64,000 nt of DNA from GCF_988243305.1 NZ_OZ547136.1; one strand, 5' to 3'; counted from the first letter of the stretch, positions 3,597-56,357 are shown. Notes: generated by a model from the letters alone, not told the origin. Numbers and translations are program-made.

Positions 3597-5039
3597 TTAC
3601 TGTTCTGCCGTGAATTTTTGTTCCAGTGCTTTCAGCAGGGAAGGCTCCCATTCGGGTAGCATCATGTGTAAGCCTGTTTTGAAGAGCATCCGGTACTGCT
3701 GTTGTGCAAGCTGAACCATACCGGCTTCTTCCAGTAACTGCGCGCCGAAAAATTGGCGATGAAACTGGTTACGGGGATCACCTTCGGGCAGGTTTTCCAG
3801 ATACCGCAGCGCGGTTTCCAGCCCGTTCTCATCGAAGCACGCCCTGGCCGCCTGTAATTCTTCATCGGTCTGTACAGCTGCTGCGGTTTGGTTGCCTGAG
3901 CCCGATGGTGCCAGCCACTGTTTCGTCTGTTCGGACACAAACGGAGTGCGGTCGTTAAACAACAGGTTGATCAGTGCGGGCAGGCGAGCAAGAAAACTGG
4001 TAACTTCATCACGGATAGCATCCGCCACCTGTATATAACCAAGGCGCAACGCGGTCTGTGCTGAGAGGTAATGGCCGTCCAGCCAGTACGGGGCCAGCAG
4101 CAGGCTTTTTTCCACCTGCTGCCAAAGCGCCATGTCGGCATTGTTCAGTCGCGCCAGATAGTCATCCATCATATCTACAGGGAAAGCAGCCAGAGGGGTC
4201 CGGCCATCGCTTTCTGCCTGCGGGGTACTGGTGATGGTCTGCCACAGCGCATGGCGGCGCAGGCGGTAACCCAGCGGTGACTCCGGCTGACGTTCACAGA
4301 GAATGGCGGCTACCTTCAACAGGGTGTCGCGCCATGCTTTATCATCGTGGCTGTCCACGGTGACCTGCGGGATTGGAGTGGCTGCAACAGGAGGCTGAGC
4401 GGAAACTGTGTGCGGTAACATATCCGGTGCAGATCCGGTCGTGGCCTGCGGCGCAATGGCGGCGGTTCGTGCAGATGATGGCATTTCAGGCGCTACATCA
4501 CGAAACGCGCGCTGAAACAGAGTAAATAAATCGTCTGTCGCCTTAGCCAGCTCAGGCGCGTTGTGCGCCTGCCAGCACAGTGCCAGTTTTGCCAGCTCTC
4601 CCAGCAAAGCATCGCGCTGTGTTGTCACAGCATTCCCGGCAAAGTCATGAATGGCCGACTCAAAGCGTTTTATCACTTGGGTGGCGAAGCGTTTTTTGTG
4701 GGCCATGTTCTGCGGCGCGGCGCATGTCCAGTAGTGCTCTGTATATTGTGTCAGTATCCTGGAGGCCAGCAGAATATCACCGGCATGTTGCAGGGTACGC
4801 AGCAGGTGGGCCAGCAGGCGAAAATCTTTGGTTTCTGAGGCCAGAAGCATCAGGCCCCGGCGCTGAAGTTCGGGGATATCAAGCTGGCTGTGCGCCAGTG
4901 AACCGAGCTTGACGATTTCGCTGTCGATAAACTCCCAGTCTGCATTGCCATCATCAAGCGCGGCGGACAGCTTATCTTCCGGCAGGTTTTCCAGCAGGTG
5001 TGCAAGCCATATATCAGGATTACGTAAGTCCATTGCCAT
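3597..5039 (-). CDS. tssA: Type VI secretion protein TssA (ImpA family)
   Basis: ORF track gives 3597..5105; preferred start is the ATG at 5039 (MAMDLRNPDIW...), which has an AGGAGA Shine-Dalgarno 8 nt upstream on the minus strand and avoids overlap with the upstream gene; about 480 aa. Confidence 0.8.
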   Translation of the reverse strand: MAMDLRNPDIWLAHLLENLPEDKLSAALDDGNADWEFIDSEIVKLGSLAHSQLDIPELQRRGLMLLASETKDFRLLAHLLRTLQHAGDILLASRILTQYTEHYWTCAAPQNMAHKKRFATQVIKRFESAIHDFAGNAVTTQRDALLGELAKLALCWQAHNAPELAKATDDLFTLFQRAFRDVAPEMPSSARTAAIAPQATTGSAPDMLPHTVSAQPPVAATPIPQVTVDSHDDKAWRDTLLKVAAILCERQPESPLGYRLRRHALWQTITSTPQAESDGRTPLAAFPVDMMDDYLARLNNADMALWQQVEKSLLLAPYWLDGHYLSAQTALRLGYIQVADAIRDEVTSFLARLPALINLLFNDRTPFVSEQTKQWLAPSGSGNQTAAAVQTDEELQAARACFDENGLETALRYLENLPEGDPRNQFHRQFFGAQLLEEAGMVQLAQQQYRMLFKTGLHMMLPEWEPSLLKALEQKFTAEQ

Positions 5040-5043
5040 ATTT

Positions 5044-5787
5044 TTATTCTCCTGCCCAGTGGCAGGCGTCGCGTAGCGGCGCAATAACCCGCGCCAGCCC
5101 GTCAATGTTAAAGGTCAGCTTTCCGGCAGCATTGTCTGTGCCGGTATCAACCGTCAGTGTTTTAGCAGCGAATAGTTGCTTAATTTCATCAATACCGGAT
5201 AACCCCCGGCTGGACTCCAGCAGGGTGCCGTTCTCGCGCACAAACCAGTGGCTGCGCAATGCCCGGCTGTCGGCATTCAGGGTGACGGCGATATCATGGA
5301 CATCCAGAGGATGCATCAGCGCCACCTGCATCCGGGTGATATTGTCCACGCAACTGAACATCAGCACCGGGCGCGGCGGAACATGACCGATAGCCGGGGT
5401 GGTTATCACTACCGTCGGGCGTTCACCCGGCACCTGCGTCACCAGCAGCTCTGTGGTGCTGCCCTGGCGGCGTTTTTCCTGCTCTGTGGCGCGGGTCCAG
5501 GCTTCGCCCACAAAGCTGGCTTTGACCAGTGCGGCGTTGCCGAAGCCGGGCTGTTCCGGTGCAAGAATGCGGTCATAACAGTCAAGCCGCTCCAGCGCCG
5601 CAGATTCCCGCCGACAGGACTGCATGGCCTGTAACGTGGCTGTCGCATCCGGCGGGGGCGTGGTGGCGACGGCGACCGCCGCACCGGCCATTGACGATGT
5701 TTCTGCGGGCGCGGCACTGGCGGGTAAGCCCGCCATCAGGCCCGCGATAAACCATCCTGCCTGCCGGAAAACGCGCAACCTGCTCAT
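5044..5787 (-). CDS. T6SS-associated exported protein (VasI/TagO-like); family assignment tentative
   Basis: 247-aa ORF embedded between clpV and tssA; N-terminal signal-peptide-like segment (FIAGLMAGLPASAAPA); 4-nt overlap with the clpV stop suggests translational coupling. Confidence 0.5.
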   Translation of the reverse strand: MSRLRVFRQAGWFIAGLMAGLPASAAPAETSSMAGAAVAVATTPPPDATATLQAMQSCRRESAALERLDCYDRILAPEQPGFGNAALVKASFVGEAWTRATEQEKRRQGSTTELLVTQVPGERPTVVITTPAIGHVPPRPVLMFSCVDNITRMQVALMHPLDVHDIAVTLNADSRALRSHWFVRENGTLLESSRGLSGIDEIKQLFAAKTLTVDTGTDNAAGKLTFNIDGLARVIAPLRDACHWAGE

Positions 5788-8516: not shown

Positions 8517-8525
8517 AAGATGTCC

Positions 8526-9299
8526 TTATCGGAGTAATTTATTGAGCTGATGCAGAATATCCTGTGTCTGGCTGTCCAGACGCAGCAGATAAAACAGATA
8601 AAATACGGCCAGCACAACAAGACCGCCGCACATTACATGCCTGATGGTCAGCCGCCGGATTAACTGATAACGCCCGCCCTGTATGTTGTTCTTCTGGTGA
8701 AGCAGCGGAAATGGCGCGTCACCGCGCAGTTTGTGCAGGGCATGGTGCAGGCGCTGGTAGATCCGCTCAAATTCATCCTGTTGCTGAATGGCAACCTTGT
8801 AGCGCCCGCGAAAGCCGAGCGAAAAACAGAGATATAAAAATTCCAGCAGATCCTGGTAACGTACCGGCTCCCGGATCAGGCGTTCGAGCAGGATAAACAC
8901 TTTCTCGCCGCCCCAGGCTTCGTTATGAAAATGAACCAGCAGCGACTGTTTGATCCATTCGTTTTTGTTGGACCAGCCGTTGCCCAGCGCCGCTTCGTCA
9001 ATAAACGTGCAGAGAATGTAGCGGAACGAAACAATGACGCCCGGCTCGTAACCCTGCTCCTGGAGTAGTTGTTCCACAGCCTGGACATCGGTTACCACCT
9101 GGGCAAACAGATGTTCCGGCATGGCCTGGCTGTTCATGGTGGACAGACGCATCACCATGCCGAGCAACGGCGTGGCGGCGTCAATCATTGGGTTCAGGCT
9201 GTTGCCGCGAAGGGCGAGACGATACTGACGTCCTGATGTTCCGCTCTCCGGCTCCATGGGAAAAACCGACGGTTCACCCATATCGCTGATATCGCTCAT
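8526..9299 (-). CDS. tssL: T6SS membrane protein TssL (DotU family)
   Basis: 257 aa; C-terminal transmembrane helix (GGLVVLAVFYLFYLL); position between tssK and clpV. Confidence 0.85.
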   Translation of the reverse strand: MSDISDMGEPSVFPMEPESGTSGRQYRLALRGNSLNPMIDAATPLLGMVMRLSTMNSQAMPEHLFAQVVTDVQAVEQLLQEQGYEPGVIVSFRYILCTFIDEAALGNGWSNKNEWIKQSLLVHFHNEAWGGEKVFILLERLIREPVRYQDLLEFLYLCFSLGFRGRYKVAIQQQDEFERIYQRLHHALHKLRGDAPFPLLHQKNNIQGGRYQLIRRLTIRHVMCGGLVVLAVFYLFYLLRLDSQTQDILHQLNKLLR

Positions 9300-9303
9300 T
9301 CAC

Positions 9304-10650
9304 TTATCCCCTTATCGCCCAGAGCTGAAGGTTCAGATCGGGGAAGGTGCCGGAGATATGCAGCGCCAGCGCGCCCGCTTTTATCACGTCCTGCCAGGCT
9401 GGGGTGCCTTTTTCCAGTTCGAAGTAAACATAACCTTCATGCCAGGGCAACTGACGCGGCGCAGCGGTAAGCGTGTGCAGCGGAATACCCGGCACCTGCA
9501 CGCTGACCACGCTGCGGATTTTGTCGGTAGCGGCCACTTTCGACTGCTGGATGAACTGGCGCTGCACCTGGTCGTAGGGCATCCTGGCGCGCACTGCCAG
9601 TACCAGCTTGCAGGACTGCAACAGTGTGGGATCGCTGATGGTGGCGATCCAGGTCCCCTCTGAAAAGAACAGCGGCAGATTCTGCGCACGCGGTACCAGC
9701 ACGGTATTGAGTGCGCGCCGCAGTTCCGGAATTACTGTTCTGGTGAAGGTCGCGGTAAGATCCCGGTGATTATACGGCTCCACGGTGCAGGGCAGGCGAT
9801 TACCTTCGGTGAAGGTCATCAGTTCTCCCAGCAGCCCCACCAGATCCCGGTAGAAGGCTTCCGGATGCAGCGTGTGCAGTTGGGAACGATGCGTGAACTG
9901 CATTTGATGGCGGTTAAGCATCTGCAACATCATAAATTCGGCCACATCGGCGATCCCGCTCTGTTCAGGCGAACCGATGCGCCCGGCCAGGTCGGCGGCG
10001 CGGGTGGCAAGTAGCCCCTGCACCTCGCCGGAGAATGCCCCGAGCAACCCGCTGACACGGACGGCCTGAATGGTGGGAATAAAGGTGTTGTCCAGCACCA
10101 GTGCGCCGGTAGCATTTTTATTGAGGATACGGCACAGGGGGAGGGTCACCATCGCGCTGAGATCATCTGCGCCGCTGACTATCCTGGGGATCAACTGCCC
10201 CAGACCGACCGGCTGTTCGTCGCCTTCGTCAGTGTGAAAATCACGGACGCGGGTATGGGTGAGGCGGTAACGTTCCGTGCCCTGACCGGCGCTGTGCAAC
10301 CCCTGGATTTCATTGATCACGTCGCTGATTACAGGCAGTGCCAGATAAATATTGTGGCTCTCTTTCGATGAAAGGGTTCCCGGCTGGAAAGGTTCCGGCA
10401 GCAGATCCTGGTCGGGAATGCTGAATACGGTGCCGTCAGGCATACAGCCCGCCGCACGGTCAATCATGATTTTGCCCTGGGCAAGCAGTTCGGTATTGAT
10501 GGAGAGTTCTGTAAAGCCCCAGAAAAAATCACCCTGAGCATCCAGACGACGGGTCAGCAGGTACTCGCAGTGACGCTGCTGTTGCTGAAAATGCTGCGGC
10601 AGGGCAAACAGCCCTTCCTGCCAGATCACCTTGTTTTTCATTGTTGCCAT
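9304..10650 (-). CDS. tssK: T6SS baseplate protein TssK
   Basis: 448 aa; N-terminus VIWQEGLFALPQHFQQQ typical of TssK; start could instead be the ATG 9 nt downstream (MKNKV...). Confidence 0.85.
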   Translation of the reverse strand: MATMKNKVIWQEGLFALPQHFQQQQRHCEYLLTRRLDAQGDFFWGFTELSINTELLAQGKIMIDRAAGCMPDGTVFSIPDQDLLPEPFQPGTLSSKESHNIYLALPVISDVINEIQGLHSAGQGTERYRLTHTRVRDFHTDEGDEQPVGLGQLIPRIVSGADDLSAMVTLPLCRILNKNATGALVLDNTFIPTIQAVRVSGLLGAFSGEVQGLLATRAADLAGRIGSPEQSGIADVAEFMMLQMLNRHQMQFTHRSQLHTLHPEAFYRDLVGLLGELMTFTEGNRLPCTVEPYNHRDLTATFTRTVIPELRRALNTVLVPRAQNLPLFFSEGTWIATISDPTLLQSCKLVLAVRARMPYDQVQRQFIQQSKVAATDKIRSVVSVQVPGIPLHTLTAAPRQLPWHEGYVYFELEKGTPAWQDVIKAGALALHISGTFPDLNLQLWAIRG

Positions 10651-10652
10651 CG

Positions 10653-11177
10653 TCAGTTTTCCTCTTTTTTCATCTCAATCGCACTGGCGCGGATATGCAC
10701 CAGCAGGCGATAGTGGTGGCCGATACTTTCTACCGGCTCAATTTGTTTCCATTCTGTGGCCTGATCGTCTGAAAAATAGGCAATGACACCGATATAACCG
10801 GTTTTCTCATCCAGCTTGATCGGCGGCAGTGTTTTTACGGTGTCCGGCAACAGGTTGAAGTCCTGGTGATCGATATAGTTCTTCCCCAGCACGTCGGGCA
10901 GCGCGGTGGTGGCAATCTGATCGTAATCGGCGGCCTGGAATTTGGAGTCGTCGCTCAGATACACCAACTGGACATCCACCGGCGCGGCTTCGCCGTCCGC
11001 CGTCAGGTTGCTGTCCGGCTCGGTCAGCAGCGTGACGGTCAGTTCGGTTGACTGCTCCATCAGCTTTCCGACCTGAATATCCGGATTGCGGATCACTTGG
11101 CTGATTTTTTTCGCTGTTTCACAGCCAGTTAACACAACGCTCATCAGAACGCAGGCCAGAAACGCTTTGCCGTTCAT
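10653..11177 (-). CDS. tssJ: T6SS outer-membrane lipoprotein TssJ
   Basis: 174 aa; signal peptide with lipobox LTGC. Confidence 0.85.
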   Translation of the reverse strand: MNGKAFLACVLMSVVLTGCETAKKISQVIRNPDIQVGKLMEQSTELTVTLLTEPDSNLTADGEAAPVDVQLVYLSDDSKFQAADYDQIATTALPDVLGKNYIDHQDFNLLPDTVKTLPPIKLDEKTGYIGVIAYFSDDQATEWKQIEPVESIGHHYRLLVHIRASAIEMKKEEN

Positions 11178-12466
11178 GCTTCCGGCTCCCGCTGTTTTTC
11201 GCGCAGCACTCGGTCATAGACCTGGGCATAAACTTCATTGAACAGCATTTCAAATCCCTGCTGTCGGCTGGAGGCCAGTTCATCGTAATAGTTGCTGTAC
11301 ATCTGCCATGCCCAGGCGTTGTCCATTTTCTGGCGCAGCTCATGGCTGCGGCGGTATTGCGCAAAGCGGCGCATCAGGTTGCCCGGCGAGAAGGCGTCCA
11401 GCATGACACGCAACGCTTCCACAATCGCCGCCCGGTTGGCCTCTTCATGATGCCGGATGTTGCGCAGGCTTTCGGCGATGGCCGCAGGTGCTGCGAGATG
11501 TACCGGGCTTTTACCCTCGGCGAACATGACGTTCAGCGCGGTGGCATAGTCCATATCAAGGCGCAACGGGTTGTCTTCCAGTGGACGCAGGTGTTTATCC
11601 GACAGGCTGTTCTGTTGTTGTTGCAGACTCAGCAATCCCTTAATGGCGGCCTGCAACGCCCGTCCGGCCTCTTCGAGAAACTCATCCGCATCCTGAGAAT
11701 TGTGCAGCGTCAGCGGACACTCCATACCGCGCAGCAGCGGGGTTACGGCCAGGTGGTACTGCGCCATGGCAGAAAATTCATCGCCGTCCTCATGACGGGC
11801 ATTGCCGGGTGGCAGATCCATAAACGGCGTGTTGATCCCGTTTGCACCTGTCAGATCGGAGGCGGTGGCAACGGGCCGGGAAACGCGTGGGGCGATCGGA
11901 TCATCTGCCACCATCAGGCTTTCCGTCTGGAGTGCCTGGAGCGGATCGCTGGAAAAACCGTGCGCCACCGTGGGGGCAAGCTGATGCTGGAACGGCATTC
12001 CCGGATACGCCGGTTGTCCCTCGGTGGTCAACAGGGTGTCCGCCAGACTGTCGCGGTTCATTACAATCGTTTCCGGGGTCGCCATCCGCTCGTCATAGGT
12101 AACAGCTGCACCGTCATGCAGAAACACTTTCAGCGCCAGTGCGCCGAGCTGGATCTCATCCCCCTGGCGCAGGCGGATGAGCGCATCGGAAGAGACCGGG
12201 GCCAGATTAATCATCAGTCCCGGCGTCAGGCACCGCAGGCAATAGGCTCCGTCGTGCCGGATAACGGTACAGGCACGCGCAGCAATGCTTCCCGCCCGGT
12301 CCTGTACCTGCCAGTGACATTCCGGCGTATGGCCAATATCACCGCCGTTTTCGCTGAACAGGCATTTTGCGGCGCGTCCGCTTTCCAGTTCGTTGCCATT
12401 CATCACCTGTAAAGTCAGTGAGGCCTGGCGGGATTGCTGTTTTTCCTCAGCCATAAGTGGTTCCAT
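11174..12466 (-). CDS. tagH: T6SS-associated FHA-domain protein TagH (Fha)
   Basis: N-terminal FHA-like domain (...IGHTPECHWQVQD...CTVIRHDGAYCLRCL...GDEIQLGALALKV); ORF track start 12616 is probably too far upstream; preferred ATG at 12466 (MEPLMAEEKQQ) lies 5 nt from the tssG stop. Confidence 0.8.
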   Translation of the reverse strand: MEPLMAEEKQQSRQASLTLQVMNGNELESGRAAKCLFSENGGDIGHTPECHWQVQDRAGSIAARACTVIRHDGAYCLRCLTPGLMINLAPVSSDALIRLRQGDEIQLGALALKVFLHDGAAVTYDERMATPETIVMNRDSLADTLLTTEGQPAYPGMPFQHQLAPTVAHGFSSDPLQALQTESLMVADDPIAPRVSRPVATASDLTGANGINTPFMDLPPGNARHEDGDEFSAMAQYHLAVTPLLRGMECPLTLHNSQDADEFLEEAGRALQAAIKGLLSLQQQQNSLSDKHLRPLEDNPLRLDMDYATALNVMFAEGKSPVHLAAPAAIAESLRNIRHHEEANRAAIVEALRVMLDAFSPGNLMRRFAQYRRSHELRQKMDNAWAWQMYSNYYDELASSRQQGFEMLFNEVYAQVYDRVLREKQREPEA

Positions 12467-12470
12467 AGAA

Positions 12471-13520
12471 TTATTCCCTGATTCGGATTGTGATGGCGGG
12501 CGGTACTTTCGGCTGACCAATAAAGCTGGTTCTGCCGAGGCGGGAGCTGGCCGGATCGCCAAGGTGCATCCCTTTAGCCTGCTGTGGTGCCAGGCACAGC
12601 CGTAAATCCCAGGCAAACTGGTCGCGCAGAATAAAGGAAAGGAACATGGTCAGCGGCAGGTGATTTTCGCCATCGGGTAAAAATGAGAGATAACGCTCCC
12701 GCGACAGGCCGCCAATCTGCAACAGGAATTTTCCGCTGCGATCCGGCACCCGTGCGCCGAGGGTAAAATTAACGCCGAGTATGGAGCGTCCCGGAATATG
12801 TCCAGCCGTTTTTCCTTTCGGATTACGTACACCCAGCCGGTTCTGGTGTGCCGGATCAATGGCGACTTTACGCAGTTGCCAGCGTTCAATGGTGACATCC
12901 GGCAAATCAAAACAGTGCGACACAAGATTACAGATGACCTCCGGCGCGCGGCCTGGTGTTGCCAGAATTCCGGCGTAGGCCAGCATTTTGCTGTGGTTAA
13001 TGGCAAGCCTGTCACGCACGCTCTGATTACCCAGCCCGACCAGTGCGTACATGCGCTGTGAAAAGGTGTCAGTACCGCCGTTACGAAAGCAGATGTAGTA
13101 GCGGTATTTGCGCCAGGCATGATAGGCAAACTGTGTCCAGCGGTGGCTGAATAGATCGAGAAATTCTTTCAGGCCGTCTTCGTTCTGTGCGGACTCCTGC
13201 GCCATCTGATCCAGATAATAGCCCGGTAGCGGCGACTGGCTGCCGGAAAAACCCAGGAACCGGGTTTGCAGTACATACTGTCCGTTCTGGCTACGGGAAA
13301 GCGCACTCAGGTCCGTACCCGGAAAACCGATACTGGCGTCAGAGCTGAAACGCACGATCTCCCGGGCAGGCTCGGTACGCAGGGAAATGTCCTGGCCCGG
13401 CGTGCCATACCGACGGTACAGCGCCTCCATTAGCACATAGAAATTGCAGTTGCGCACATCCGCCGGTAACGGCGGTTTTGCCGCTATATCAGGGCGTGCT
13501 GGCCCATTTTCTCCTGCCAT
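12471..13520 (-). CDS. tssG: T6SS baseplate protein TssG
   Basis: 349 aa; operon position between tssF and tagH; the 37-nt overlap with tssF means the true start could be the internal ATG at 13430. Confidence 0.8.
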   Translation of the reverse strand: MAGENGPARPDIAAKPPLPADVRNCNFYVLMEALYRRYGTPGQDISLRTEPAREIVRFSSDASIGFPGTDLSALSRSQNGQYVLQTRFLGFSGSQSPLPGYYLDQMAQESAQNEDGLKEFLDLFSHRWTQFAYHAWRKYRYYICFRNGGTDTFSQRMYALVGLGNQSVRDRLAINHSKMLAYAGILATPGRAPEVICNLVSHCFDLPDVTIERWQLRKVAIDPAHQNRLGVRNPKGKTAGHIPGRSILGVNFTLGARVPDRSGKFLLQIGGLSRERYLSFLPDGENHLPLTMFLSFILRDQFAWDLRLCLAPQQAKGMHLGDPASSRLGRTSFIGQPKVPPAITIRIRE

Positions 13521-46208: not shown

Positions 46209-47462
46209 ATGCTGGAACAAATGGGCATTGCCGCGAAGCAAGCCTCGTATAAATTAGCGCAACTCTCCAGCCGCGAAAAAAATCGCGTGCTGGAAAAAAT
46301 CGCCGATGAACTGGAAGCACAAAGCGAAATCATCCTCAACGCTAACGCCCAGGATGTTGCTGACGCGCGTGCCAATGGCCTTAGCGAAGCGATGCTTGAC
46401 CGTCTGGCACTGACGCCCGCACGGCTGAAAGGCATCGCCGACGATGTGCGTCAGGTGTGTAATCTCGCCGATCCGGTGGGGCAGGTAATCGATGGCGGCG
46501 TACTGGACAGTGGTCTGCGTCTGGAGCGCCGTCGCGTGCCGCTGGGGGTGATTGGCGTGATTTATGAAGCGCGCCCGAACGTGACGGTAGATGTCGCTTC
46601 GCTGTGCCTGAAAACAGGTAACGCGGTGATCCTGCGCGGCGGCAAAGAAACGTGTCGCACTAACGCTGCAACGGTGGCGGTGATTCAGGACGCCCTGAAA
46701 TCCTGCGGCTTACCGGCGGGTGCCGTGCAGGCGATTGATAATCCTGACCGTGCGCTGGTCAGTGAAATGCTGCGTATGGATAAATACATCGACATGCTGA
46801 TCCCGCGTGGTGGCGCTGGCCTGCATAAACTGTGCCGCGAACAGTCGACGATCCCGGTGATCACAGGTGGTATAGGCGTATGCCATATTTATGTTGATGA
46901 AAGTGCAGAGATCGCTGAAGCCCTGAAAGTAATCGTCAACGCGAAAACTCAGCGTCCGAGCACATGTAATACGGTAGAAACGTTGCTGGTGAATAAAAAC
47001 ATCGCCGATAGCTTCCTGCCAGCATTAAGCAAGCAAATGGCGGAAAGCGGCGTGACATTACACGCAGATATAGCTGCGCTGGCGCAGTTGCAGGCAGGCC
47101 CCGCGAAGGTGGTGGCTGTTAAAGCCGAAGAGTATGACGATGAGTTTCTGTCATTAGATTTGAACGTCAAAATCGTCAGCGATCTTGACGATGCCATCGC
47201 CCATATTCGTGAACACGGCACGCAACACTCCGATGCGATCCTGACCCGCGATATGCGCAACGCCCAGCGTTTTGTTAACGAAGTGGATTCGTCCGCTGTT
47301 TACGTTAACGCCTCTACGCGTTTTACCGACGGCGGCCAGTTTGGACTGGGTGCGGAAGTGGCGGTAAGCACACAAAAACTCCACGCGCGTGGCCCAATGG
47401 GGCTGGAAGCACTGACCACTTACAAGTGGATCGGCATTGGTGATTACACCATTCGTGCGTAA
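46209..47462 (+). CDS. proA: Gamma-glutamyl phosphate reductase ProA
   Basis: 417 aa; starts 12 nt after the proB stop. Confidence 0.9.
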
Positions 47463-47576
47463 ATAAAACCGGGTGATGCAAAAGTAGCCATTTGATTCAC
47501 AAGGCCATTGACGCATCGCCCGGTTAGTTTTAACCTTGTCCACCGTGATTCACGTTCGTGAACATGTCCTTTCAGG

Positions 47577-47652
47577 GCCGATATAGCTCAGTTGGTAGAG
47601 CAGCGCATTCGTAATGCGAAGGTCGTAGGTTCGACTCCTATTATCGGCACCA
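47577..47652 (+). tRNA. thrW: tRNA-Thr (anticodon CGU)
   Basis: 76-nt sequence GCCGATATAGCTCAGTTGGTAGAGCAGCGCATTCGTAATGCGAAGGTCGTAGGTTCGACTCCTATTATCGGCACCA with D-loop, CGT anticodon in ATTCGTAAT loop, T-loop GGTTCGACTCC and encoded CCA. Confidence 0.9.
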
Positions 47653-47665
47653 TTAAATCAATAAG

Positions 47666-47830
47666 TTACACATAATTAGTACCTTCCTTTTTTTTTGACT
47701 GGGACAAATTTGGGACCGATGGGTTCAGGACTGAGTCTATTTGCCGTGCGTGTTCGGTAAGGTGATTAGGCGCGAGGTGAGCATATCGACGAACCATTTC
47801 GATAGACTCCCAGCCTCCCATTTCTGAAAA
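47666..47830 (-). pseudogene. 3'-terminal remnant of a tyrosine-recombinase (phage/island integrase) gene
   Basis: Only about 55 C-terminal codons with integrase-like ...[28 protein letters not shown]...; stop is 14 nt from the thrW 3' end; upstream boundary approximate. Confidence 0.65.
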
Positions 47831-47836
47831 TGCAAG

Positions 47837-48388
47837 TTGGATGTCACAGACCGACAGTCCATGGCAGATTTCGTGCAAGCAGCGCTGGATAGCTGGGGGC
47901 GAGTTGATGTTCTTATCAATAATGCGGGCGTTATGCCGCTTTCACCGCTTGCAGCAGGAAAACAAGATGAATGGGAACTCACTATTGACGTGAATATCAA
48001 AGGCGTACTTTGGGGAATTGGCGCTGTACTTCCGGTGATGGAAGCACAGGGTTCCGGTCAGATAATCAATCTTGGTTCTATTGGTGCCCTTTCTGTTGTG
48101 CCCACAGGCGCAGTCTATTGTGCATCAAAATTTGCAGTACGGGCTATTTCGGATGGCTTACGGCAGGAAAGCTCGAAAATCCGTGTGACCTGCGTAAATC
48201 CTGGGGTTGTAGAAAGTGAACTGGCTTCAACCATTACCCATGTGGAAACCATGAAGTCAATGGACGCCTACCGTTCTGTTGCACTTCAACCCGCGGATAT
48301 TGCCCGTGCTGTAAGGCATATTATTGAGTCTCCCGAAAGCGTTGATACAACCGAAATTACCATCAGACCTACTGCATCTGCAAACTGA
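47837..48388 (+). pseudogene. 5'-truncated short-chain dehydrogenase/reductase (SDR) gene
   Basis: Homology starts within the SDR fold (...DVLINNAGV...; catalytic YCASK) but the N-terminal Rossmann TGxxxGIG segment is absent; overlaps the integrase remnant at a probable deletion junction. Confidence 0.6.
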
Positions 48389-48603
48389 AGAATAACTTTT
48401 ATATTCACGTTTTATTAAATAGGTCGGAAGGAAAATTTATATCCACTGTTTTGAATAGCAAGATGCATTATATTATGCATTGCTCACTCCGAAGGAGATG
48501 AAGGTTTAATTACAGTAAGATTATTTTCACAGGGAGTAAACATGACTCATATTTAATGCCTTTGTATATAAAACTCATCCTCTCAATTGTCAGGAGAATT
48601 AGC

Positions 48604-48834
48604 GTGAATACTATCTGTTCTTTAATTGTTGTTGTTACACTGTCTTTATTATCATTCAGTAGCGTCGCCAAAACGATTACTGCCGTCGGTTCAACCATCG
48701 ACAGCACTGAAAAAGAAATTTCTTTACAGGCAGCAAAACAAGGAAAATCATATAAAATTCTGGGCGCGTTTTTTAAGAACAGAGTTTATATGATAGCAAA
48801 GTTAATACCAGTCAGTAAAAATGATGCTTCGTAA
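48604..48834 (+). CDS. Small exported protein, DUF1471 (YdgH/BhsA/McbA)-like
   Basis: GTG at 48604 with AGGAGA 6 nt upstream; signal-peptide-like N-terminus followed by ...ITAVGSTIDSTEKEISLQAAKQGKSYKILGA...; about 76 aa; family call tentative. Confidence 0.45.
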   Translation: MNTICSLIVVVTLSLLSFSSVAKTITAVGSTIDSTEKEISLQAAKQGKSYKILGAFFKNRVYMIAKLIPVSKNDAS

Positions 48835-49535
48835 GGCTCATGGTCTAATTTTTAAGACATGATCAAGAAGCATGTCTATTGATTCAAAATTGTCATTATT
48901 ATGGCAATGGAATGCCCGACAAATGACGCTATACCATCCTTCTGTACCAGTCGTCCTGCTAATCCCACCGATGCTTCGGTCTGGAGTGGTAAATTAATAT
49001 TGGACACAGTTTTATTTTCTCTCTTTTTCGAGGGGGGGATATCAACAGGAAGAATACATCCCTAAGCGGTTAATGCTGGCGTAATCAATAGACCAACATT
49101 AATCACGGATGATTACCAATCAGACTGAAATGGTTAAATCGTCGAATTCATATTTAATACGTTTTCTTTCGCCGCTGAACAACTTGAAAAGGATACATAT
49201 TTTAAATATCAGTGAAGTGAACAGTTTATTGCCATTATTAATAGAGATGGAGGAATAAATACGCGTATTCGACTATTGCAACAAAAACAACGATGATGAT
49301 CAGTTTTCATAATGAAGTAACCTGACAGATATAAAAATGTTGATTGAGGCTAAATGCCCGGATGAAGGTTGTCGAGGGAGCCAGGTGGTTTTTTCTTTTG
49401 GGTGATCTCCATTGCTGGATAGTCCCCTTGTACAGATAAGCCTGCTCTTTCTCGCTCAAAGCAGACCCTGGAATTGAACGCAGAGGGACTACCTGACACA
49501 ATTTTGCACAGTGAAGAGTCGGTCGTTATTAACGT

Positions 49536-50420
49536 TCAGATTTTCAATGTATCAATGACCATCCGCAGGGCGGGGGAGACGTTGCGATGAGGGTAATAGA
49601 GAAACAATCCCTCCATTCGCAGGCTGTAACGCTGCAACACCCTGATAAGCTTACCGTGTTCTAAATCATCCGCGACCAGTTCAACAGGAACATAGGCCAA
49701 TCCGAGGCCCAGCCGGGCGGCTTCTGCTTCCATATAGCTGTCGGATAGGGCCCATTGCCCTTCAGGGCGATGAGTGATTTTTTTATCATCCTGATTGAGT
49801 TCCCACTGGTATACGCTGCCGTCGGCAAACTGATAGGCGATACAGGGATGCGCCTTTAAATCCGCCGGGGTTTGCGGAAAACCATAGCGACGAAAATGTT
49901 CCGGAGTCCCCACAATTGCCATCTCCATATCGGGCGTGATGCGTACCGCGACCATACCCTGGCCGACTTCAGGCCCCAGGCGGACACCTGCATCGAATCT
50001 TTCCTCGATGATATCGACGAACCGGCTCTCATTTATCAGTTCAAGCCGGATATCAGGATATCTCTGTTTAAATACCGCCAGCTTTGGCAGCAGGCATTTA
50101 TCAATCGCGTGCTGGCTGGCATTGATACGCACCGTGCCGGAGGGCGTCTCTCGATAGTGCGCCAGCGTGGCAAGCCCAAGATCTAACATTTCAAATCCAG
50201 ATGCCGTCTTCTGGTAGAGCTGCTCGCCTGCTTGTGTCAGCGACAGTTTACGCGTGGTGCGCACTAGCAGCTGGACGCCCAGCCTTTCTTCAAGCTCGCG
50301 AACAGAACGGCTGACTCCTGACTGAGCAAGACCCAGCCGCTGAGCCGCTGCGGTAAAGCTGCCTTCCCGCACCACCTGCATAAACAGGTACAGCTCGTTG
50401 TAGTTCTCCCTTTTCGCCAT
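49536..50420 (-). CDS. LysR-family transcriptional regulator
   Basis: 294 aa; N-terminal helix-turn-helix FTAAAQRLGLAQSGVSRSVRELEERLGVQLL; divergent from the hydrolase gene. Confidence 0.8.
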   Translation of the reverse strand: MAKRENYNELYLFMQVVREGSFTAAAQRLGLAQSGVSRSVRELEERLGVQLLVRTTRKLSLTQAGEQLYQKTASGFEMLDLGLATLAHYRETPSGTVRINASQHAIDKCLLPKLAVFKQRYPDIRLELINESRFVDIIEERFDAGVRLGPEVGQGMVAVRITPDMEMAIVGTPEHFRRYGFPQTPADLKAHPCIAYQFADGSVYQWELNQDDKKITHRPEGQWALSDSYMEAEAARLGLGLAYVPVELVADDLEHGKLIRVLQRYSLRMEGLFLYYPHRNVSPALRMVIDTLKI

Positions 50421-50606
50421 TGAAACATCCCCCCTTCATGCCGGCAATCTCCGCATTAATTTATAACAATATGGTATTAATCTTAGCATTAATCGCCCCC
50501 TAATCAGCACTAATTCTGCTCACTATAATGACCCCATCAAAGTAAAGCACCGCAGCGTTGTCCGTCGGAAACCTGTATCTCTCTGTTGTTTTTTATGGGG
50601 ATTTTT

Positions 50607-51743
50607 ATGAAAGCCTTCACCCGCACGCTAAAAACCGCGATGCCGACCATGCTGCTTTTCGCATCATTAAGTGGAGTCACGACAATGAGTTATGCTGATT
50701 CAACCAATCCTAATGCCCCTGTGTCCATGACAGATAAATGGGATAAAACGTTCGCCGAGAGCCAGAAAGTCGATCACCGTAAAGTCTCGTTCCCGAACCG
50801 ATATGGCATCACCTTAGTGGGCGATCTTTACCTGCCTAAAGACCGTGGCGATCGCAAGCTGGCGGCGATTGCGGTCAGTGGGCCATTTGGCGCGGTGAAA
50901 GAGCAATCCAGCGGCTTGTATGCGCAGACGCTGGCGGAACGAGGGTTTGTTACCCTGGCGTTCGATCCTTCTTACACCGGGGAAAGCGGCGGCTATCCGC
51001 GAAACGTCGCCTCACCGGATATCAACACTGAAGATTTCAGCGCGGCGGTGGATTTCTTAGGGCTGCAAAAAGAGGTAGATCGCAACCGTATCGGGCTGCT
51101 CGGTATTTGTGGCTGGGGCGGCATGGCGCTGAACGACGTGGCGATGGATACCCGCGTTAAAGCGGTAGCTACCAGCGTGATGTATGACATGAGCCGGGCG
51201 ATGGGTCATGGTGTGGGGGATGGCAAAGACCGTTATTCTACCGCCGACCGTCGTGCCGTTCTGCAATATCTGAATGAACAGCGCTGGCAGGATGCGCAGA
51301 GCGGAACGTTCGCTCACGGTGGTCATGATATTAATGTCGATAGCAACGGCAAGGTCAGTGCGGGCGAGCGCATTCTGCCAGAAACGCTGCCGGCAAATCC
51401 TCATCCGGTACTGAAAGAGTTCTTTGACTACTATCGCATGCCGCGCGGCTTCCACGAACGTTCCGTTAACTCTACCGGGGCGTGGACGGCAACGATGCCG
51501 CTGTCATTTATGAATATGCCGCTGTTGAGCTACGCCAGTGAAATCACCATTCCGACGCTGATTGTGACCGGTGAGAAAGCACATTCACGCTATTTTGCTG
51601 AAGATGCTTACAAGGCGGTTGGCAGTAAAGACAAAGAGTTGGTGGTGGTACCAGGGGCAAATCACGTGGACCTGTACGATAACGTGGCCGGAAAAATACC
51701 TTTCGCGAAGTTCGAACAATTTTTCCAGACCAAACTGAAATAA
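50607..51743 (+). CDS. Secreted alpha/beta hydrolase (dienelactone-hydrolase-like)
   Basis: ORF track 50586..51743; start at ATG 50607 (MKAFTRTLK...) preceded by GGGGA; signal peptide; nucleophile-elbow-like GICGWGG. Confidence 0.65.
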   Translation: MKAFTRTLKTAMPTMLLFASLSGVTTMSYADSTNPNAPVSMTDKWDKTFAESQKVDHRKVSFPNRYGITLVGDLYLPKDRGDRKLAAIAVSGPFGAVKEQSSGLYAQTLAERGFVTLAFDPSYTGESGGYPRNVASPDINTEDFSAAVDFLGLQKEVDRNRIGLLGICGWGGMALNDVAMDTRVKAVATSVMYDMSRAMGHGVGDGKDRYSTADRRAVLQYLNEQRWQDAQSGTFAHGGHDINVDSNGKVSAGERILPETLPANPHPVLKEFFDYYRMPRGFHERSVNSTGAWTATMPLSFMNMPLLSYASEITIPTLIVTGEKAHSRYFAEDAYKAVGSKDKELVVVPGANHVDLYDNVAGKIPFAKFEQFFQTKLK

Positions 51744-51818
51744 AACCTCTCCTGAATTGATGCAAAGCCACCGGCCATAGGCTGGTGGCTTTTATCCTGA
51801 TCTTTGTGAAATTTCACT

Positions 51819-53012
51819 ATGTCGACACTAAGCCAAACACTATCACCTCATCATCAGCGCGCATACTGGGGCGGTATTTTTGCCATGACCCTGTGCGTGT
51901 TTGTGCTGATTGCTTCTGAATTTATGCCCGTCAGCCTGCTCACGCCGATTACCCGCGATTTAGGCGTGACGGAGGGGCTTGCAGGGCAGGGGATTGCTAT
52001 CTCCGGCGCGCTGGCGGTTCTGACCAGCCTGACGCTTTCAACGCTAGCTGGAAAGATGAATCGTAAGTTCCTGCTGCTGGGGATGACGGTTCTGATGGCC
52101 GTATCGGGGCTTATTATTGCGCTGGCTTCCAGTTATCTGATGTATATGGTCGGTCGTGCGATGATTGGTGTGGCTATTGGCGGATTCTGGTCGATGTCAG
52201 CGGCAACGGCGATTCGTCTGGTGCCGCAGCATCAGGTCACGCGTGCGCTGGCAATTTTCAACGCCGGTAATGCGCTGGCGACGGTCGTGGCCGCACCGCT
52301 GGGAAGCTATCTGGGGGCTACGGTCGGATGGCGAGGCGCTTTCTTGTGCCTGGTGCCCATCGCGGTTGTCGCCTTTATCTGGCAGTGCATCAGCCTGCCA
52401 AGCATGGATGCGAATAAAAGCCACACTTCATGTGGCGCGGTATTCCGCTTATTTAGCCGCCGCATGGTTGTGGTCGGCATGATAGCTTGTGGCCTGTTTT
52501 TCATGGGGCAGTTTGCGCTATTCACCTATGTGCGCCCGTTTCTGGAGTCGGTGACACGGGTTAATTCCTTAGGCTTGTCGTCGATTTTGCTGATTATCGG
52601 CGTGGCCGGTTTTATTGGCACGCTGGTTGTTTCGGCATTTCTCAACAGAAAATTCTACCCCACGCTGATGGCCATACCCGGACTGATGGCCGTCATTGCC
52701 ATCGGTCTGATGCTTACCGGGCATCACGTCTGGACGGTCTCGCTGCTGTTAGGACTCTGGGGCATGCTGGCCACCGCCGCGCCAACCGGATGGTGGACAT
52801 GGATTGCGCGTACGTTGCCTGACAACGCCGAAGCTGGAGGCGGGCTCATGGTCGCGGTGATTCAGCTCGCCATCGCCCTTGGATCAACGGCAGGAGGCAT
52901 TGTGTTTGACCGCCTTGGCTGGCAGAGCACGTTTGCTATGAGTAGCGTGCTGCTCCTTTGCGCTGGCGTACTGACCTTTGTTACCGCACGCCAGAAGGCC
53001 GGTGCGCTTTAG
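51819..53012 (+). CDS. MFS-family transporter
   Basis: 397 aa; about 12 predicted hydrophobic helices. Confidence 0.75.
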   Translation: MSTLSQTLSPHHQRAYWGGIFAMTLCVFVLIASEFMPVSLLTPITRDLGVTEGLAGQGIAISGALAVLTSLTLSTLAGKMNRKFLLLGMTVLMAVSGLIIALASSYLMYMVGRAMIGVAIGGFWSMSAATAIRLVPQHQVTRALAIFNAGNALATVVAAPLGSYLGATVGWRGAFLCLVPIAVVAFIWQCISLPSMDANKSHTSCGAVFRLFSRRMVVVGMIACGLFFMGQFALFTYVRPFLESVTRVNSLGLSSILLIIGVAGFIGTLVVSAFLNRKFYPTLMAIPGLMAVIAIGLMLTGHHVWTVSLLLGLWGMLATAAPTGWWTWIARTLPDNAEAGGGLMVAVIQLAIALGSTAGGIVFDRLGWQSTFAMSSVLLLCAGVLTFVTARQKAGAL

Positions 53013-53055
53013 TCCGGCGAGGGCGCGCGTTGCTGAATAAGTTACACAAGGCGAT

Positions 53056-53088
53056 GAGCGCCCACTATGGGTTGGGCGCTCTTTTAAA
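53056..53088 (+). terminator. Rho-independent terminator after the MFS transporter gene
   Basis: 9-bp stem GAGCGCCCA / TGGGCGCTC with 8-nt loop, followed by TTTTAAA. Confidence 0.55.
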
Positions 53089-53192
53089 CGATTTAGGTGA
53101 TTTTCTAAAACGGCTACTGCAGATTTTTTCTCTTAATTTATGGGTATTTCCCCCGGAGGCGAGAAAGCGCTCTCCACGCCCGGCCGCAAGGA

Positions 53193-54149
53193 TCAGGACG
53201 ACGGGGGCAGGCATGAATCCTCATCCTGATGGAGACGTACAGAGGCGACTTCTGCCAGCACGGAGAGTGCCAGAGTATGCGCATCCCGGGCTTTGGGGAA
53301 TATCCCGACGGGTGCCCGGATTTGCGCTGTCTCCTCCCTGGACCATCCCAGCTCGTGGAGCTTTTGCAGACGTAAAGTGTGGGTTCGATAGCTGCCCAAT
53401 GCGCCGAGATAAAAGGGTTTTGCTTCTCGCGCGGCCTGCAACACTGGCAGCTCCCGGTTGAGATCATGGCACAGCAAAATGACCGCCGTATCGGTATCGA
53501 TCTGAGCGCTGGCTGAGGCCGGAAAAAGATCGAAGATATGGCTGTCATAGCCTGTGGCTGCTGCAAGACTCGCGGTTGCCTGCGCTTCAAGAGAACGTCC
53601 GTAAATCATCAGCCTGACGCATGGCCTGAACCCCACCTCAAAGCCATTGAGATTCCAGCCCGTCCGGGTTTGCGTGGGCAGGCACACCAGCGATTGAGCT
53701 TGCGGATCGTAGCGCAGACCCGCCGGTTTTCTCTGTTCCAGGCGGTTCAGCACGGCGAGCAGAGGCTGTGCCGAGCGTAGTTTATGGAGCGTCAGCGTGA
53801 TCCCACCGCCGCAGGGCAGAACGATGTCAAACCACGGCGAACCTTCGCCATAGCGAATTTCGCGATCGCGGTCTGAGCCCATCATCTCCAGCGCTTCAAA
53901 AGCGGCAGCGGCCTCCACGCAGCCGCCAGAGACAAAACCGCAATAACGACCATCTTCGCGCACCACCATCTGTGCCCCGAGCGGGCGCGCCGCGCCGCCG
54001 CGTATTTCCACCAGCGTCACCAGCACCGCTCCTTTACCGGACATTAGCGCCTCTACGGCGAAGCGCAGAATGGTCCGGTGGTCATCGGTGAGAAACGCCT
54101 GCTCTGGCTTATGCCAGTGCTCGTCTTTGTCAAAAAGCGAGTATGACAT
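53193..54149 (-). CDS. paoD: Molybdenum cofactor insertion chaperone PaoD (XdhC family)
   Basis: 318 aa; matches YagQ/PaoD as recalled. Confidence 0.85.
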   Translation of the reverse strand: MSYSLFDKDEHWHKPEQAFLTDDHRTILRFAVEALMSGKGAVLVTLVEIRGGAARPLGAQMVVREDGRYCGFVSGGCVEAAAAFEALEMMGSDRDREIRYGEGSPWFDIVLPCGGGITLTLHKLRSAQPLLAVLNRLEQRKPAGLRYDPQAQSLVCLPTQTRTGWNLNGFEVGFRPCVRLMIYGRSLEAQATASLAAATGYDSHIFDLFPASASAQIDTDTAVILLCHDLNRELPVLQAAREAKPFYLGALGSYRTHTLRLQKLHELGWSREETAQIRAPVGIFPKARDAHTLALSVLAEVASVRLHQDEDSCLPPSS

Positions 54150-54158
54150 TGTTCCTCC

Positions 54159-56357
54159 TTAAACCACATCCGGCAGTTTATCGAGCAGCTTATCCAGAGT
54201 GATGGGATAATCCCGTACCCGAATACCGGTGGCGTTATACACCGCGTTGGCGATAGCCGCGCTCACGCCGCACAGGCCCAGCTCACCGACACCTTTGGCC
54301 TTCATCGGGGAGGATATGGGGTCGGTATCATCCAGGAAAATCACCTCCTGTTTTGGGATATCCGCATGGACCGGCACCTCATACCCCGCCATATCGTGAT
54401 TAACGAAGTAGCCCAAACGGTCATCTACCGCCAGCTCCTCCATCAGTGCCGCGCCCATGCCCATAGTCATCGCGCCAATGACCTGGCTGCGTGCAGTTTT
54501 CGGATTCAGGATGCGTCCTGCAGCACACACAGCGAGCATACGCCGGACCCGAACTTCTCCCGTCGCGCTATGCACGCCGACCTCCACAAAATGCCCGGCA
54601 AAGGTCGATTGCTGGTACTCCTTGCTCAGTGTTCCGAATTCAATGCTCTCTTCCGCTGTCAGTCTGCCGCCTGCGGTGGCCTCATGTAGCATGGCGCTTC
54701 GGGTACCGTTGGTAATCTTGCCGTCGGCAAACTGCGACTGCTCAGGATCAAACCCGACTGCCGAGGCAATCATTTCGCGAAGCTTCACACAGGCGGCGTA
54801 AACGCCGGAGGTGGAGGTATTCGCGCCCCATTGTCCACCAGAACCCGCAGAAACCGGGAAACTGGAATCGCCGAGGTGAACCGCAACCTGCTCCAGCGGT
54901 ACGCCAAGCATTTCCGCTGCCGTCTGGGCCAGAATGGTGTAGCTGCCAGTGCCAATATCGGTCATGTCCGTTTCCACGGTAACGGTGCCGTTTTGTTCTA
55001 GGTGAACCCGCGCACCCGATTTTTCCAGCAGATTATTGCGAAAGCCCGCCGCAACACCGTGGCCGACTAGCCACTCCCCGTCGCGTACCTGTCCGGGTGT
55101 GGCGTTGCGCAGCTTCCAGCCAAATTTATCCGCTCCGGTGCGCAAGCACTCGATAAGCTGACGGCGAGAGAAGCGGCGCGTCGGGTCGGCGGGGTCAACC
55201 TGAGTGTCATTCAGGATGCGAAACTCGACGGGATCGATGCCCGCTTTTTCCGCCAGTTCGTCGATCGCGATTTCGAGCGCCATCAGACCGGGGGCTTCGC
55301 CGGGCGCACGCATGGCGTTCCCTTCCGGCAAATCAAGCGTGGCGAGCCGCAGGCCGGTATGACGATTCGCCCCTGCGTAAAGAAATTCGCTTTGCTGTAC
55401 CGCCGTTTCCGGCGTGCCGCCGGGCAGGTTTCCGGACCAGCTTTCATGTGAGATAGCGGTGATTTTCCCGCTCTGGTCGGCACCGATACGCAGGTGCTGA
55501 AGGGTGGCGGGGCGGTGCGTGGTGTTATTGGGAATAGTGGGGCGGGGGAGCATCACTTTAACCGGACGTTTCACCGCACGGGCGGCGAGGGCCGCCAGCA
55601 GCGCATCGCTTCTCAGGAACAGCTTGCCGCCAAACCCTCCACCGATATACGGGGAGATAATACGCACATTCTCCACGGGCACTTTCAGCGTTTTTGCCAG
55701 ATCGGTGCGGCACCAGTCAATCATCTGATTTGAGGTCCAGAGGGTAAGCTTATTTCCATCCCAGACGGCCATCGAGGCATGCGGCTCCATCGCCATATGG
55801 CTCTGGTCCGGGGTCGTGTAGGTAGCATCAATCTTCACCGCAGCGGAGGTGAAAGCCCCGTCAAAGTCACCAACATTTTTATCGGGCGTGTCTTCCGGCG
55901 GCTGACTGACGGCCTGTTTCTCGTCCGCCAGGGAGTAAGCTCCTTTATTACGGCGATAGTGCGCCTGCACCAGCGAGGCCGCCGCTCGCGCCTGTTCGAA
56001 GGTCTCGGCCACTACCAGCGCAATGGCCTGATGATAGTGCTCAATAGTGGGGCCGGCTAACAGCCTGGCGGTGTTTTTGTCGCCTTTGCCGAGTGCCCCA
56101 GCGTTACTGGCGGTAATGACAGCCAGTACGCCCGGCGCTTTTTGCGCGGCGTCCGTATCAAGGGCGGTGAGGCGTCCTTTGGCAATGGCAGAACTGACGA
56201 TATAACCATAGGCGGCGTTGGGGGCTTCTTCATGCCATTCGTAGGCGTAGCGTGCCGTGCCGGTAGTTTTCAGCGGTCCGTCGATGCGGTCATGGGGACG
56301 ACCGACAACCTTCAGCTGATCGATCGGGTTTTCCCCTGCGGGTTTATCAAATTTCAT
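54159..56357 (-). CDS. paoC: Periplasmic aldehyde oxidoreductase molybdopterin subunit PaoC
   Basis: 732 aa; xanthine-dehydrogenase-family molybdopterin subunit. Confidence 0.9.

Follow-up and report, generated by a model that had tools for sequence, protein, structure and literature searches.

The stretch of DNA analysed here (NZ_OZ547136.1 of GCF_988243305.1; 64,000 nucleotides (nt), hereafter the window) contains, between the tRNA gene thrW and the gene paoD, a block of genes at positions 47835-53012 that includes a LysR regulator, a hydrolase and a transporter of the major facilitator superfamily (MFS). Our analyses indicate, with a probability of roughly 0.8, that this block is a left-truncated copy of O island 9 (OI-9), published from enterohaemorrhagic Escherichia coli (EHEC) O157:H7, and that it represents old thrW-flanking DNA which carries nested deletions elsewhere. 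The block belongs to the chromosomal DNA that flanks the thrW attachment site on its right and is not part of any thrW element. The locus has already been published as OI-9/OvrB, the finding is ordinary and largely known, and its discovery value is low for that reason. The added value is mainly corrective, in that the block appears to be neither cargo of a thrW island nor an island acquired twice.

Correspondence with O island 9 and position relative to thrW elements

OI-9 comprises seven open reading frames (ORFs), z0342 to z0348, in 6,132-6,133 bp (PMC6768210). They encode a LysR regulator (z0342), an oxidoreductase (z0343), two hypothetical proteins (z0344 and z0345), the LysR regulator OvrB (z0346), a hydrolase (z0347) and an MFS transporter (z0348) (PMC6768210). 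As the O157 reference we used the locus of the O157-lineage strain 131 (L006), which is 100% identical to O157:H7 strains and shows the published OI-9 gene order between a thrW prophage and paoD. Window positions 47835-56000 are collinear with positions 5001-13163 of this reference, from inside z0343 to paoC, at 97.2% identity over 8,171 bp. Identity gene by gene is 95.7-98.9%, and it is 96-99% across the interval from the z0343 remnant to z0348. The segment of the reference that is absent from K-12 (4173-10301) measures 6,129 bp, as against the published 6,132-6,133 bp. The LysR protein of the window and its O157-lineage counterpart at the z0346 position agree in 289 of 294 amino acids (98.3%), and the gene is therefore the OvrB orthologue.

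The window thus shares with EHEC O157:H7 the gene order of OI-9 and its site between the thrW flank and paoD, but the complete set of seven ORFs was not found. A deletion has taken z0342 and 169 nt from the 5' end of z0343, which makes the window copy a truncated OI-9, and what is left of z0343 is fused to an integrase stub. The remaining content is a dead gene for a short-chain dehydrogenase/reductase (SDR), namely the z0343 remnant, followed by z0344, by a decayed spacer that holds a fragment of ykgR, and by an intact module of ovrB facing z0347 and z0348.

A preliminary description of this DNA had proposed that the genes were delivered by a former thrW element. Cargo of such an element should lie between its attachment sites, attL and attR, and should be absent from empty sites; neither holds for the block. 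In the O157 reference, a copy of the thrW 3' end (attR) lies between the prophage and z0342 and is followed by approximately 120 bp of the sequence that also follows empty thrW sites. By blastn, the flank of the empty site in ATCC 43896 (L003, 3077-3558) corresponds to the flank beyond the O157 prophage (L006, 3692-4172). In the cryptic-clade contig L090, prophage, integrase and a thrW-end copy are likewise followed by z0342-z0343-z0344 and then by an intact ykgR. Contigs of this diverged Escherichia lineage are 85% identical to the window flank at the nucleotide level, and contigs L090-L092 are the only true outgroup evidence used here.

Empty thrW sites lead to the same result. In ATCC 43896, thrW is followed directly by the yagP remnant and paoD; in EECO1006 (L005) it is followed by a yagP stub, the ykgR remnant and the 3' end of ovrB; and in contig L093 by the full series z0342-z0343-z0344-ykgR. 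Contig L093, which bears the label 'E. fergusonii', was dropped as an outgroup because its phoE-proBA-thrW region is 99.3% identical to that of E. coli ATCC 43896, and it was used only as an E. coli-like example of an empty site. Because attR lies to the left of z0342 and the flank adjoins empty thrW, the block is outside attL-attR wherever the interval is visible. A search of the 64-kb window for a second copy of the thrW end, with up to three mismatches allowed, found none; within that distance there was no sign of a hidden second attachment site farther to the right.

A separate observation at this attachment site concerns strain PRO_A-1401-6M-A_ESBL, where a 112-nt 'tRNA-Ser' is annotated in RefSeq at the right end of a conjugative-type element (L002, 5531-5642). 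It overlaps the thrW-end repeat (attR from approximately 5626); the call is probably that of a hybrid tRNA, or else spurious.

Nested deletions and the origin of the block

Of 5,426 complete E. coli genomes, 912 carry the unit of LysR regulator, hydrolase and MFS transporter, and its location is almost always chromosomal. It is thus strain-variable, as the preliminary description had it, and the same genes do not occupy this site in all E. coli. The full form, z0342-z0348 with nothing missing, occurs in about 389-410 genomes. The type represented by K-12 and ATCC 43896 (2,684 genomes) lacks positions 4173-10301 of the O157 reference (6,129 bp, with a 5-bp overlap at the junction), and the 3' end of z0342, which is yagP, stands against paoD. 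Type C (180 genomes) lacks reference positions 4065-6115. In the E. coli 042 type (296 genomes) a decayed thrW satellite leads directly into the AT-rich spacer, immediately left of the ykgR remnant, and in the window type (19 genomes, including PCN033) the integrase stub is joined to z0343 at reference position 5001. Together, the four junction types that keep the three-gene unit account for 884 of the 912 genomes in which it occurs.

The gene yagP of K-12 (b0282) bears on the direction of change. It is made up of 323 nt or more from the 3' end of z0342, fused to the paoD end, and is a 3' remnant of the leftmost OI-9 gene at the same chromosomal position. K-12 lacks z0343-z0348, whereas the window contains no yagP or z0342 sequence. 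The possibility that yagP is a fragment of the window's own LysR gene was rejected, as yagP derives from z0342, the other LysR gene. Because yagP is an N-terminally truncated z0342, the K-12 state is derived; had the island been inserted, the insertion must have begun in frame within yagP and brought with it the half that yagP lacks. The fullest form, z0342-z0348, is the older state, a statement that applies within E. coli only, and the types found in other strains are nested deletions of it. The window strain lost the rest of the former element, attR and z0342 through a deletion with one end inside the integrase gene of that element and the other in z0343. In K-12-like strains a loss of 6.1 kb left the yagP stub, and two other groups lost the left part.

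Divergence and composition were compared with those of the backbone. Among the window, O157 and 042, the genes ovrB, z0347 and z0348 are 97.2-99.3% identical, and paoC/paoD and proBA are 97.4-98.5% identical. In all three genes synonymous changes exceed non-synonymous changes between lineages. Their GC content is 0.54-0.58, as in proBA and paoCD, while the SDR gene is at 0.49, the small gene that follows it at 0.35 and the spacers at 0.30-0.40. The preliminary description had ascribed to the genes a character different from that of the surrounding backbone; this stands for the small gene and the AT-rich spacer and fails for the LysR-hydrolase-MFS unit, in which GC content and divergence match proBA and paoCD.

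Two other accounts of the block have to be weighed against an old thrW flank eroded by deletions. If the genes were cargo of a former thrW element, stranded after its decay, one would understand why an integrase stub adjoins the block, why its presence is variable and why its left part is AT-rich, and a precedent could be seen in STEC299, a marmot E. coli in which a diverged LysR-hydrolase-MFS copy is prophage cargo beside an integrase at another site. We nevertheless consider this account very unlikely. In O157 and in the cryptic clade alike, attR and the conserved empty-site flank separate the element from the block, and the same flank is present beside empty thrW sites; the window has no second att copy, the junction of stub and SDR remnant is a deletion scar in only 19 genomes, and the divergence of the three genes tracks the backbone. 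With the absence from K-12 traced to a deletion, the proposed delivery by a thrW element could not be maintained.

The other account is the published one, in which an analysis of 231 genomes reads the distribution of OI-9 as two acquisitions (PMC6768210), one in the O157/O55/O145 clade and one in the 042/UMN026/PCN033 clade, with K-12 in a primary island-free state. This account draws on the occurrence of OI-9 in two clades among those genomes, and the sporadic presence of the three-gene unit in other Enterobacterales, with sharp homology boundaries, agrees with it. It appears unlikely given that yagP of K-12 is an N-terminally truncated z0342 abutting paoD, that both 'clades' are different left-end truncations of one locus with a common right end, and that the full z0342-z0344 adjoins thrW in the diverged Escherichia clade. 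Two independent acquisitions are therefore less likely than repeated loss. The 231-genome analysis nonetheless weighs against our reading of the block as old flank DNA, as does the state of the outgroup: the cryptic-clade contigs, and L093 with them, lack the three-gene unit, pao and ecp at the locus, so the unit is not ancestral to the genus. Read as thrW-flank DNA that has been eroded by at least four different deletions beside an integration hot spot, OI-9 bears on the practice of taking 'O islands' as horizontal gain.

The three-gene module is an old occupant of this site in E. coli and owes its presence there to no thrW element; over long time-scales the 3.6-kb module looks horizontally mobile. 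In Kluyvera, nucleotide homology is limited to window positions 49451-53029, exactly the three genes, and the neighbours of the module are unrelated in Kluyvera, Enterobacter, Hafnia and others, and differ in each genus. The homology of the cryptic-clade contigs and L093 to the window ends at 49306, inside ykgR.

Several further observations were made on the surroundings of the module. In E. coli, approximately 20 kb (ovrB-z0347-z0348, paoDCBA, yagU, ykgJ, ecp, matA, ykgL and ykgOM) lie between a truncated and an intact ykgR, whereas in the diverged Escherichia clade and L093 there is only one ykgR, which is intact, and the entire 20 kb is absent. This difference may be due either to insertion or to recombinational loss. 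The ykgR remnant of the window, with approximately 140 bp to its left (49041-49306), is a diverged partial duplicate (89% and 73% identity) of the intact ykgR and the region downstream of ykgO in K-12 (the coordinates are 9261-9401 and 10094-10243 in L094 of K-12, 10436-10750 in L090 and 10486-10785 in L093). The STEC299 copy of the module (L007, 6997-11861) is 78% identical at the nucleotide level and 83-89% identical in the LysR and hydrolase proteins, and it sits between yfdPQR phage genes and a prophage integrase near yjjG. In 27 genomes the best match to the unit falls in the 60-80% identity band. The decayed satellite of the 042 type (L089, 13978-20357, found also in strain 222, L088) contains an integrase stub, an ash-family gene, a reverse transcriptase gene (product of 1,069 aa) and a toxin-antitoxin pair, AbiEi/AbiEii, and looks like a small defence islet.

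The regulator, hydrolase and transporter module

The hydrolase gene z0347 occupies 50607-51743 on the plus strand, within an ORF of 50586-51743, and encodes an alpha/beta-hydrolase of the PA2218/YcjY family. The most likely start is the ATG at 50607, since this ATG, its Shine-Dalgarno sequence and the codons of a signal peptide are conserved in nine enterobacterial loci. The resulting precursor has 378 amino acids with a 30-aa Sec signal peptide, and most database entries have the 378-aa form. The usual E. coli RefSeq start at 50685 gives 352 amino acids and removes the conserved Sec signal peptide; in view of the conservation of the 50607 start and its use in most database entries, the RefSeq start is too short. 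Most members of the PA2218-type family begin with a Sec, twin-arginine or lipoprotein signal, and the description of the protein as a secreted hydrolase is therefore supported by signal-peptide conservation both in the family and in the nine loci.

Matches of the hydrolase include PA2218 of Pseudomonas aeruginosa (PDB 2HDW, E = 1e-124) and YcjY of E. coli (5XB6, E = 1.5e-43), and a set of 76 homologues from Proteobacteria, Bacteroidota, Firmicutes, Melainabacteria and a Methanobacterium keeps 53-67% identity. Cys168, in the nucleophile motif GICGWGG, and His353, in AxHxDLYD, are invariant in 76 and 38 sequences. This invariance suggests a Cys-His hydrolase of the dienelactone-hydrolase type. 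The UilS lactonase model gave 63 bits against a cutoff of 400. PA2218 is itself a structural-genomics 'hypothetical protein' and, like the window hydrolase, is without an assigned function; in the literature on PA2218 and YcjY we found no biochemical function, the only leads being a note on GxCxG and the PgrR regulon. YcjY is 31% identical to the hydrolase, and its solved chain of 306 residues aligns from residue 4, with no N-terminal extension. Judged by this alignment YcjY appears to have no signal peptide, unlike the window protein. The gene ycjY also differs from z0347 in its setting: it shares an operon with mpaA (peptidoglycan-peptide recycling), and an MFS partner is missing.

The PA2218-type family as a whole is large, with matches in at least 594 species-level genomes and at least 8,000 protein clusters at E<=1e-30 (neighbourhoods L015-L087), and its members include proteins of gut Bacteroidales, Gastranaerophilales and a Methanobacterium. 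In some genomes (L046, L072, L083 and L086) a second paralogue without a signal peptide stands in tandem.

The transporter gene z0348 (51819-53012, plus strand) encodes a protein of the type with 12 transmembrane segments (MFS_1, 1.3e-37). Among curated models the best score was for NepI (YicM), a purine ribonucleoside efflux pump, to which the protein aligns from end to end (residues 13-388 to profile positions 15-389); the score of 290.5 bits lies below the cutoff of 584, so the protein is a relative of NepI and not NepI itself. The models that follow are sugar-efflux and Cmx exporters, and the protein is best placed as an MFS_1 member related to exporter families, outside the NepI equivalog. 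As for the hydrolase, RefSeq uses a shorter form, starting at 51885 (375 aa) instead of 51819; the N-terminus upstream of the RefSeq start is conserved, and a Shine-Dalgarno sequence supports the long form. In most E. coli records the RefSeq starts thus drop the signal peptide of the hydrolase and shorten the transporter, which calls for an annotation correction.

The ovrB orthologue (49536-50420) is on the minus strand, and its product matches HTH_1 (PF00126, 1.4e-23) and LysR_substrate (PF03466, 4.7e-35). OvrB has been reported to bind the LEE1 promoter of the locus of enterocyte effacement (LEE) and to raise expression of ler and LEE, adherence and colonisation of mice (PMC6768210). Activation of LEE1/ler is known only from experiments in O157, O55:H7 and O145:H28. 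Deletion of z0342-z0345, z0347 or z0348 in EHEC had no effect on LEE, adherence or colonisation traits (PMC6768210).

The divergent layout of the LysR gene and the hydrolase gene is conserved across loci, and their 186-bp spacer holds a probable control region at 50461-50529, read on the plus strand from the alignment of the nine enterobacterial loci. It consists of a conserved 28-bp block, TTATAACAATATGGTATTAATCTTAGCA (50461-50488), a conserved CTAATCAGCAC (50500-50510) and an invariant TATAAT (50524-50529). We infer that these are a putative LysR binding site and the hydrolase promoter. A comparable pairing is known for the paralogue ycjY, which stands beside the divergent LysR gene ycjZ (PgrR), and PgrR binds the shared spacer.

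Of 74 hydrolase loci, 38 have a LysR gene next to the hydrolase gene and 21 an MFS gene of this type, in several gene orders. The recurrence of the adjacency in different orders argues for functional coupling of the three genes. Other recurrent neighbours are genes for a cyclophilin-like protein, a hexapeptide acetyltransferase, an aldo-keto reductase, a cupin, CMD and a flavodoxin, a set more in keeping with detoxification clusters than with catabolic pathways. The preliminary description had proposed a substrate-inducible catabolic or detoxification unit. The linkage across Proteobacteria and the conserved promoter region support a coherent, probably ligand-inducible unit; of the two functions on offer, we rate detoxification or efflux above catabolism.

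A working model may be put together from these features. OvrB would bind the box at 50461-50488 and, with a small-molecule ligand, activate the TATAAT promoter (50524-50529) of z0347-z0348. The Sec-exported hydrolase would cleave an ester-, lactone- or thioester-type bond in the periplasm through its Cys168-His353 pair, and the NepI-like protein would move substrate or product across the inner membrane. The most likely direction is outward, though this is a guess from the relationship to exporters. In LEE-positive strains OvrB would, as reported, additionally activate LEE1.

We put the chances that the module is a detoxification or efflux unit at about even. Clearly less probable is catabolic scavenging, in which the periplasmic hydrolase would free a product from an external ester or amide for import by the MFS protein. 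The arrangement of LysR gene, hydrolase and transporter is one typically seen in inducible catabolism, feruloyl esterases are among the nearest characterised folds, the hydrolase family is abundant in gut and rumen bacteria, and the paralogue ycjY belongs to the PgrR regulon of peptidoglycan-peptide recycling. Set against this are the proximity of the MFS protein to exporters (NepI, sugar efflux, Cmx), the lack of linked downstream catabolic enzymes and the detoxification-type neighbours found elsewhere (aldo-keto reductase, cupin, CMD, flavodoxin and acetyltransferase). It is highly improbable that in the window strain the three genes are remnants in decay that no longer serve any function. 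Their neighbours, the SDR and ykgR remnants, are indeed pseudogenes, and EHEC mutants in z0347 and z0348 showed no adherence or LEE phenotype, but all three frames are intact and 97-99% conserved between lineages with synonymous above non-synonymous changes, and the catalytic residues and the promoter box are conserved as well.

Several points weigh against the detoxification or efflux module as modelled above. A Cys nucleophile is unusual in the oxidising periplasm. The direction of transport is a guess because membership of the NepI-like family fails the curated cutoff. A generic promoter and terminator scan did not call the proposed promoter, and its counts were not clearly above those of shuffled controls; a search of the divergent spacer for inverted repeats found no dyad. 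The OvrB paper tested LEE promoters only, and its z0347 and z0348 mutants had no adherence phenotype (PMC6768210).

For the detoxification or efflux reading, a more specific proposal would be that the ligand of OvrB is the substrate or product of its neighbours, that the module senses and detoxifies an ester or lactone common in the gut or in plants, that EHEC has wired this response to LEE, and that the PA2218-type family acts on the same class of compound. We offer this as a speculation that is probably wrong in at least some of its parts. The neighbours of a virulence regulator nonetheless form a conserved, uncharacterised module, and its ligand could explain the signal to which OvrB responds.

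Layout of the interval and its smaller features

By ORF calls, the order after proB, proA and thrW is integrase stub, SDR remnant, small ORF, AT-rich stretch, LysR gene, hydrolase gene, MFS gene and paoD. The four genes named in the preliminary description, a small exported protein, the LysR regulator, the hydrolase and the transporter, are present at their places as judged by ORFs and profile matches; its inventory of the interval between stub and paoD omitted the truncated SDR gene at 47835-48388. The annotation in RefSeq of a strain 98.9% identical agrees with this layout and flags three features as incomplete, namely the integrase, the SDR gene and, in the AT-rich stretch, a 69-nt 'YkgR' piece.

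The tRNA gene thrW, tRNA-Thr(CGU), lies at 47577-47652 on the plus strand (ARAGORN; Rfam tRNA, 71.8 bits) and is the attachment site of the integrative elements. It is followed on the minus strand by the C-terminal stub of a tyrosine integrase (47666 to approximately 47834), a relic of the former thrW element with a weak Phage_integrase match. The stub is approximately 97% identical to DNA annotated as tyrosine recombinase or integrase adjoining thrW in other genomes, RefSeq labels it 'integrase, incomplete' in a near-identical strain, and its homology to other thrW integrases stops at approximately 47834-47836. The stub of E. coli 042 is 100% identical to that of the window up to 47836. The SDR oxidoreductase pseudogene (47835-48388, plus strand) lacks approximately its first 57 codons, and with them the N-terminal part of the domain, and matches the Pfam profile adh_short only from position 56. 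It aligns to the O157 reference from 5001, where the full gene is 4832-5554, and on its left it meets the integrase stub at the deletion junction.

The small gene, z0344 by position, is on the plus strand and may start with GTG at 48604 (48604-48834, 76 aa) or with ATG at 48556 (48556-48834, 92 aa). The GTG start is better supported, with AGGAG 7 nt upstream, and most other gene callers use the 76-aa form. The N-terminus of the protein is signal-peptide-like and ends in SVA|K. Homologues were found in Escherichia/Shigella only, and synonymous and non-synonymous differences stand at 4:4. Many database variants are frameshifted, with the alternative C-terminus ...NHIKFWARFLRTEFI (alignment A1), which suggests that the small gene is under weak or no constraint. 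A BhsA-family (YdgH/BhsA/McbA) label was considered and dropped, as the similarity fell below every threshold: the protein scored 13.7 bits against DUF1471 (PF07338, cutoff 27) and 17.7 bits against the NCBIfam BhsA model (cutoff 90). A profile search of PDB returned no match, and hhalign against RclB gave a probability of 0.3%. The gene is best called an Escherichia-restricted orphan gene.

The AT-rich spacer (48835-49535, no strand, GC 0.40) had been described as lacking a convincing ORF, and this was borne out. It holds no intact gene, and the only recognisable coding sequence is a ykgR-like fragment on the minus strand (49238-49306), consisting of the stop and the last 22 codons with the upstream frame gone; RefSeq annotates it as a pseudogene, 'small membrane protein YkgR'. 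Aligned with the intact ykgR of K-12, L090 and L093, position 49306/49307 is the breakpoint at which homology to the ancestral thrW flank ends. A scan of 47000-54000 with Rfam returned the tRNA only, all other matches being far below threshold, and gave no RNA gene in the AT-rich stretch. The spacer is 92.9% identical to O157, as against 97-99% for the flanking genes; for the spacer between the SDR remnant and the small gene the value is 87%.

On the right, paoD (53193-54149, minus strand; XdhC domains, RefSeq annotation) forms the backbone boundary. The adjacent paoC is annotated as frameshifted (L001, 9581-11622) in strain CFIAFB20140388, which is the window's nearest match across the full interval; the paoC of the window itself is an intact ORF of 732 amino acids at 54159-56357.

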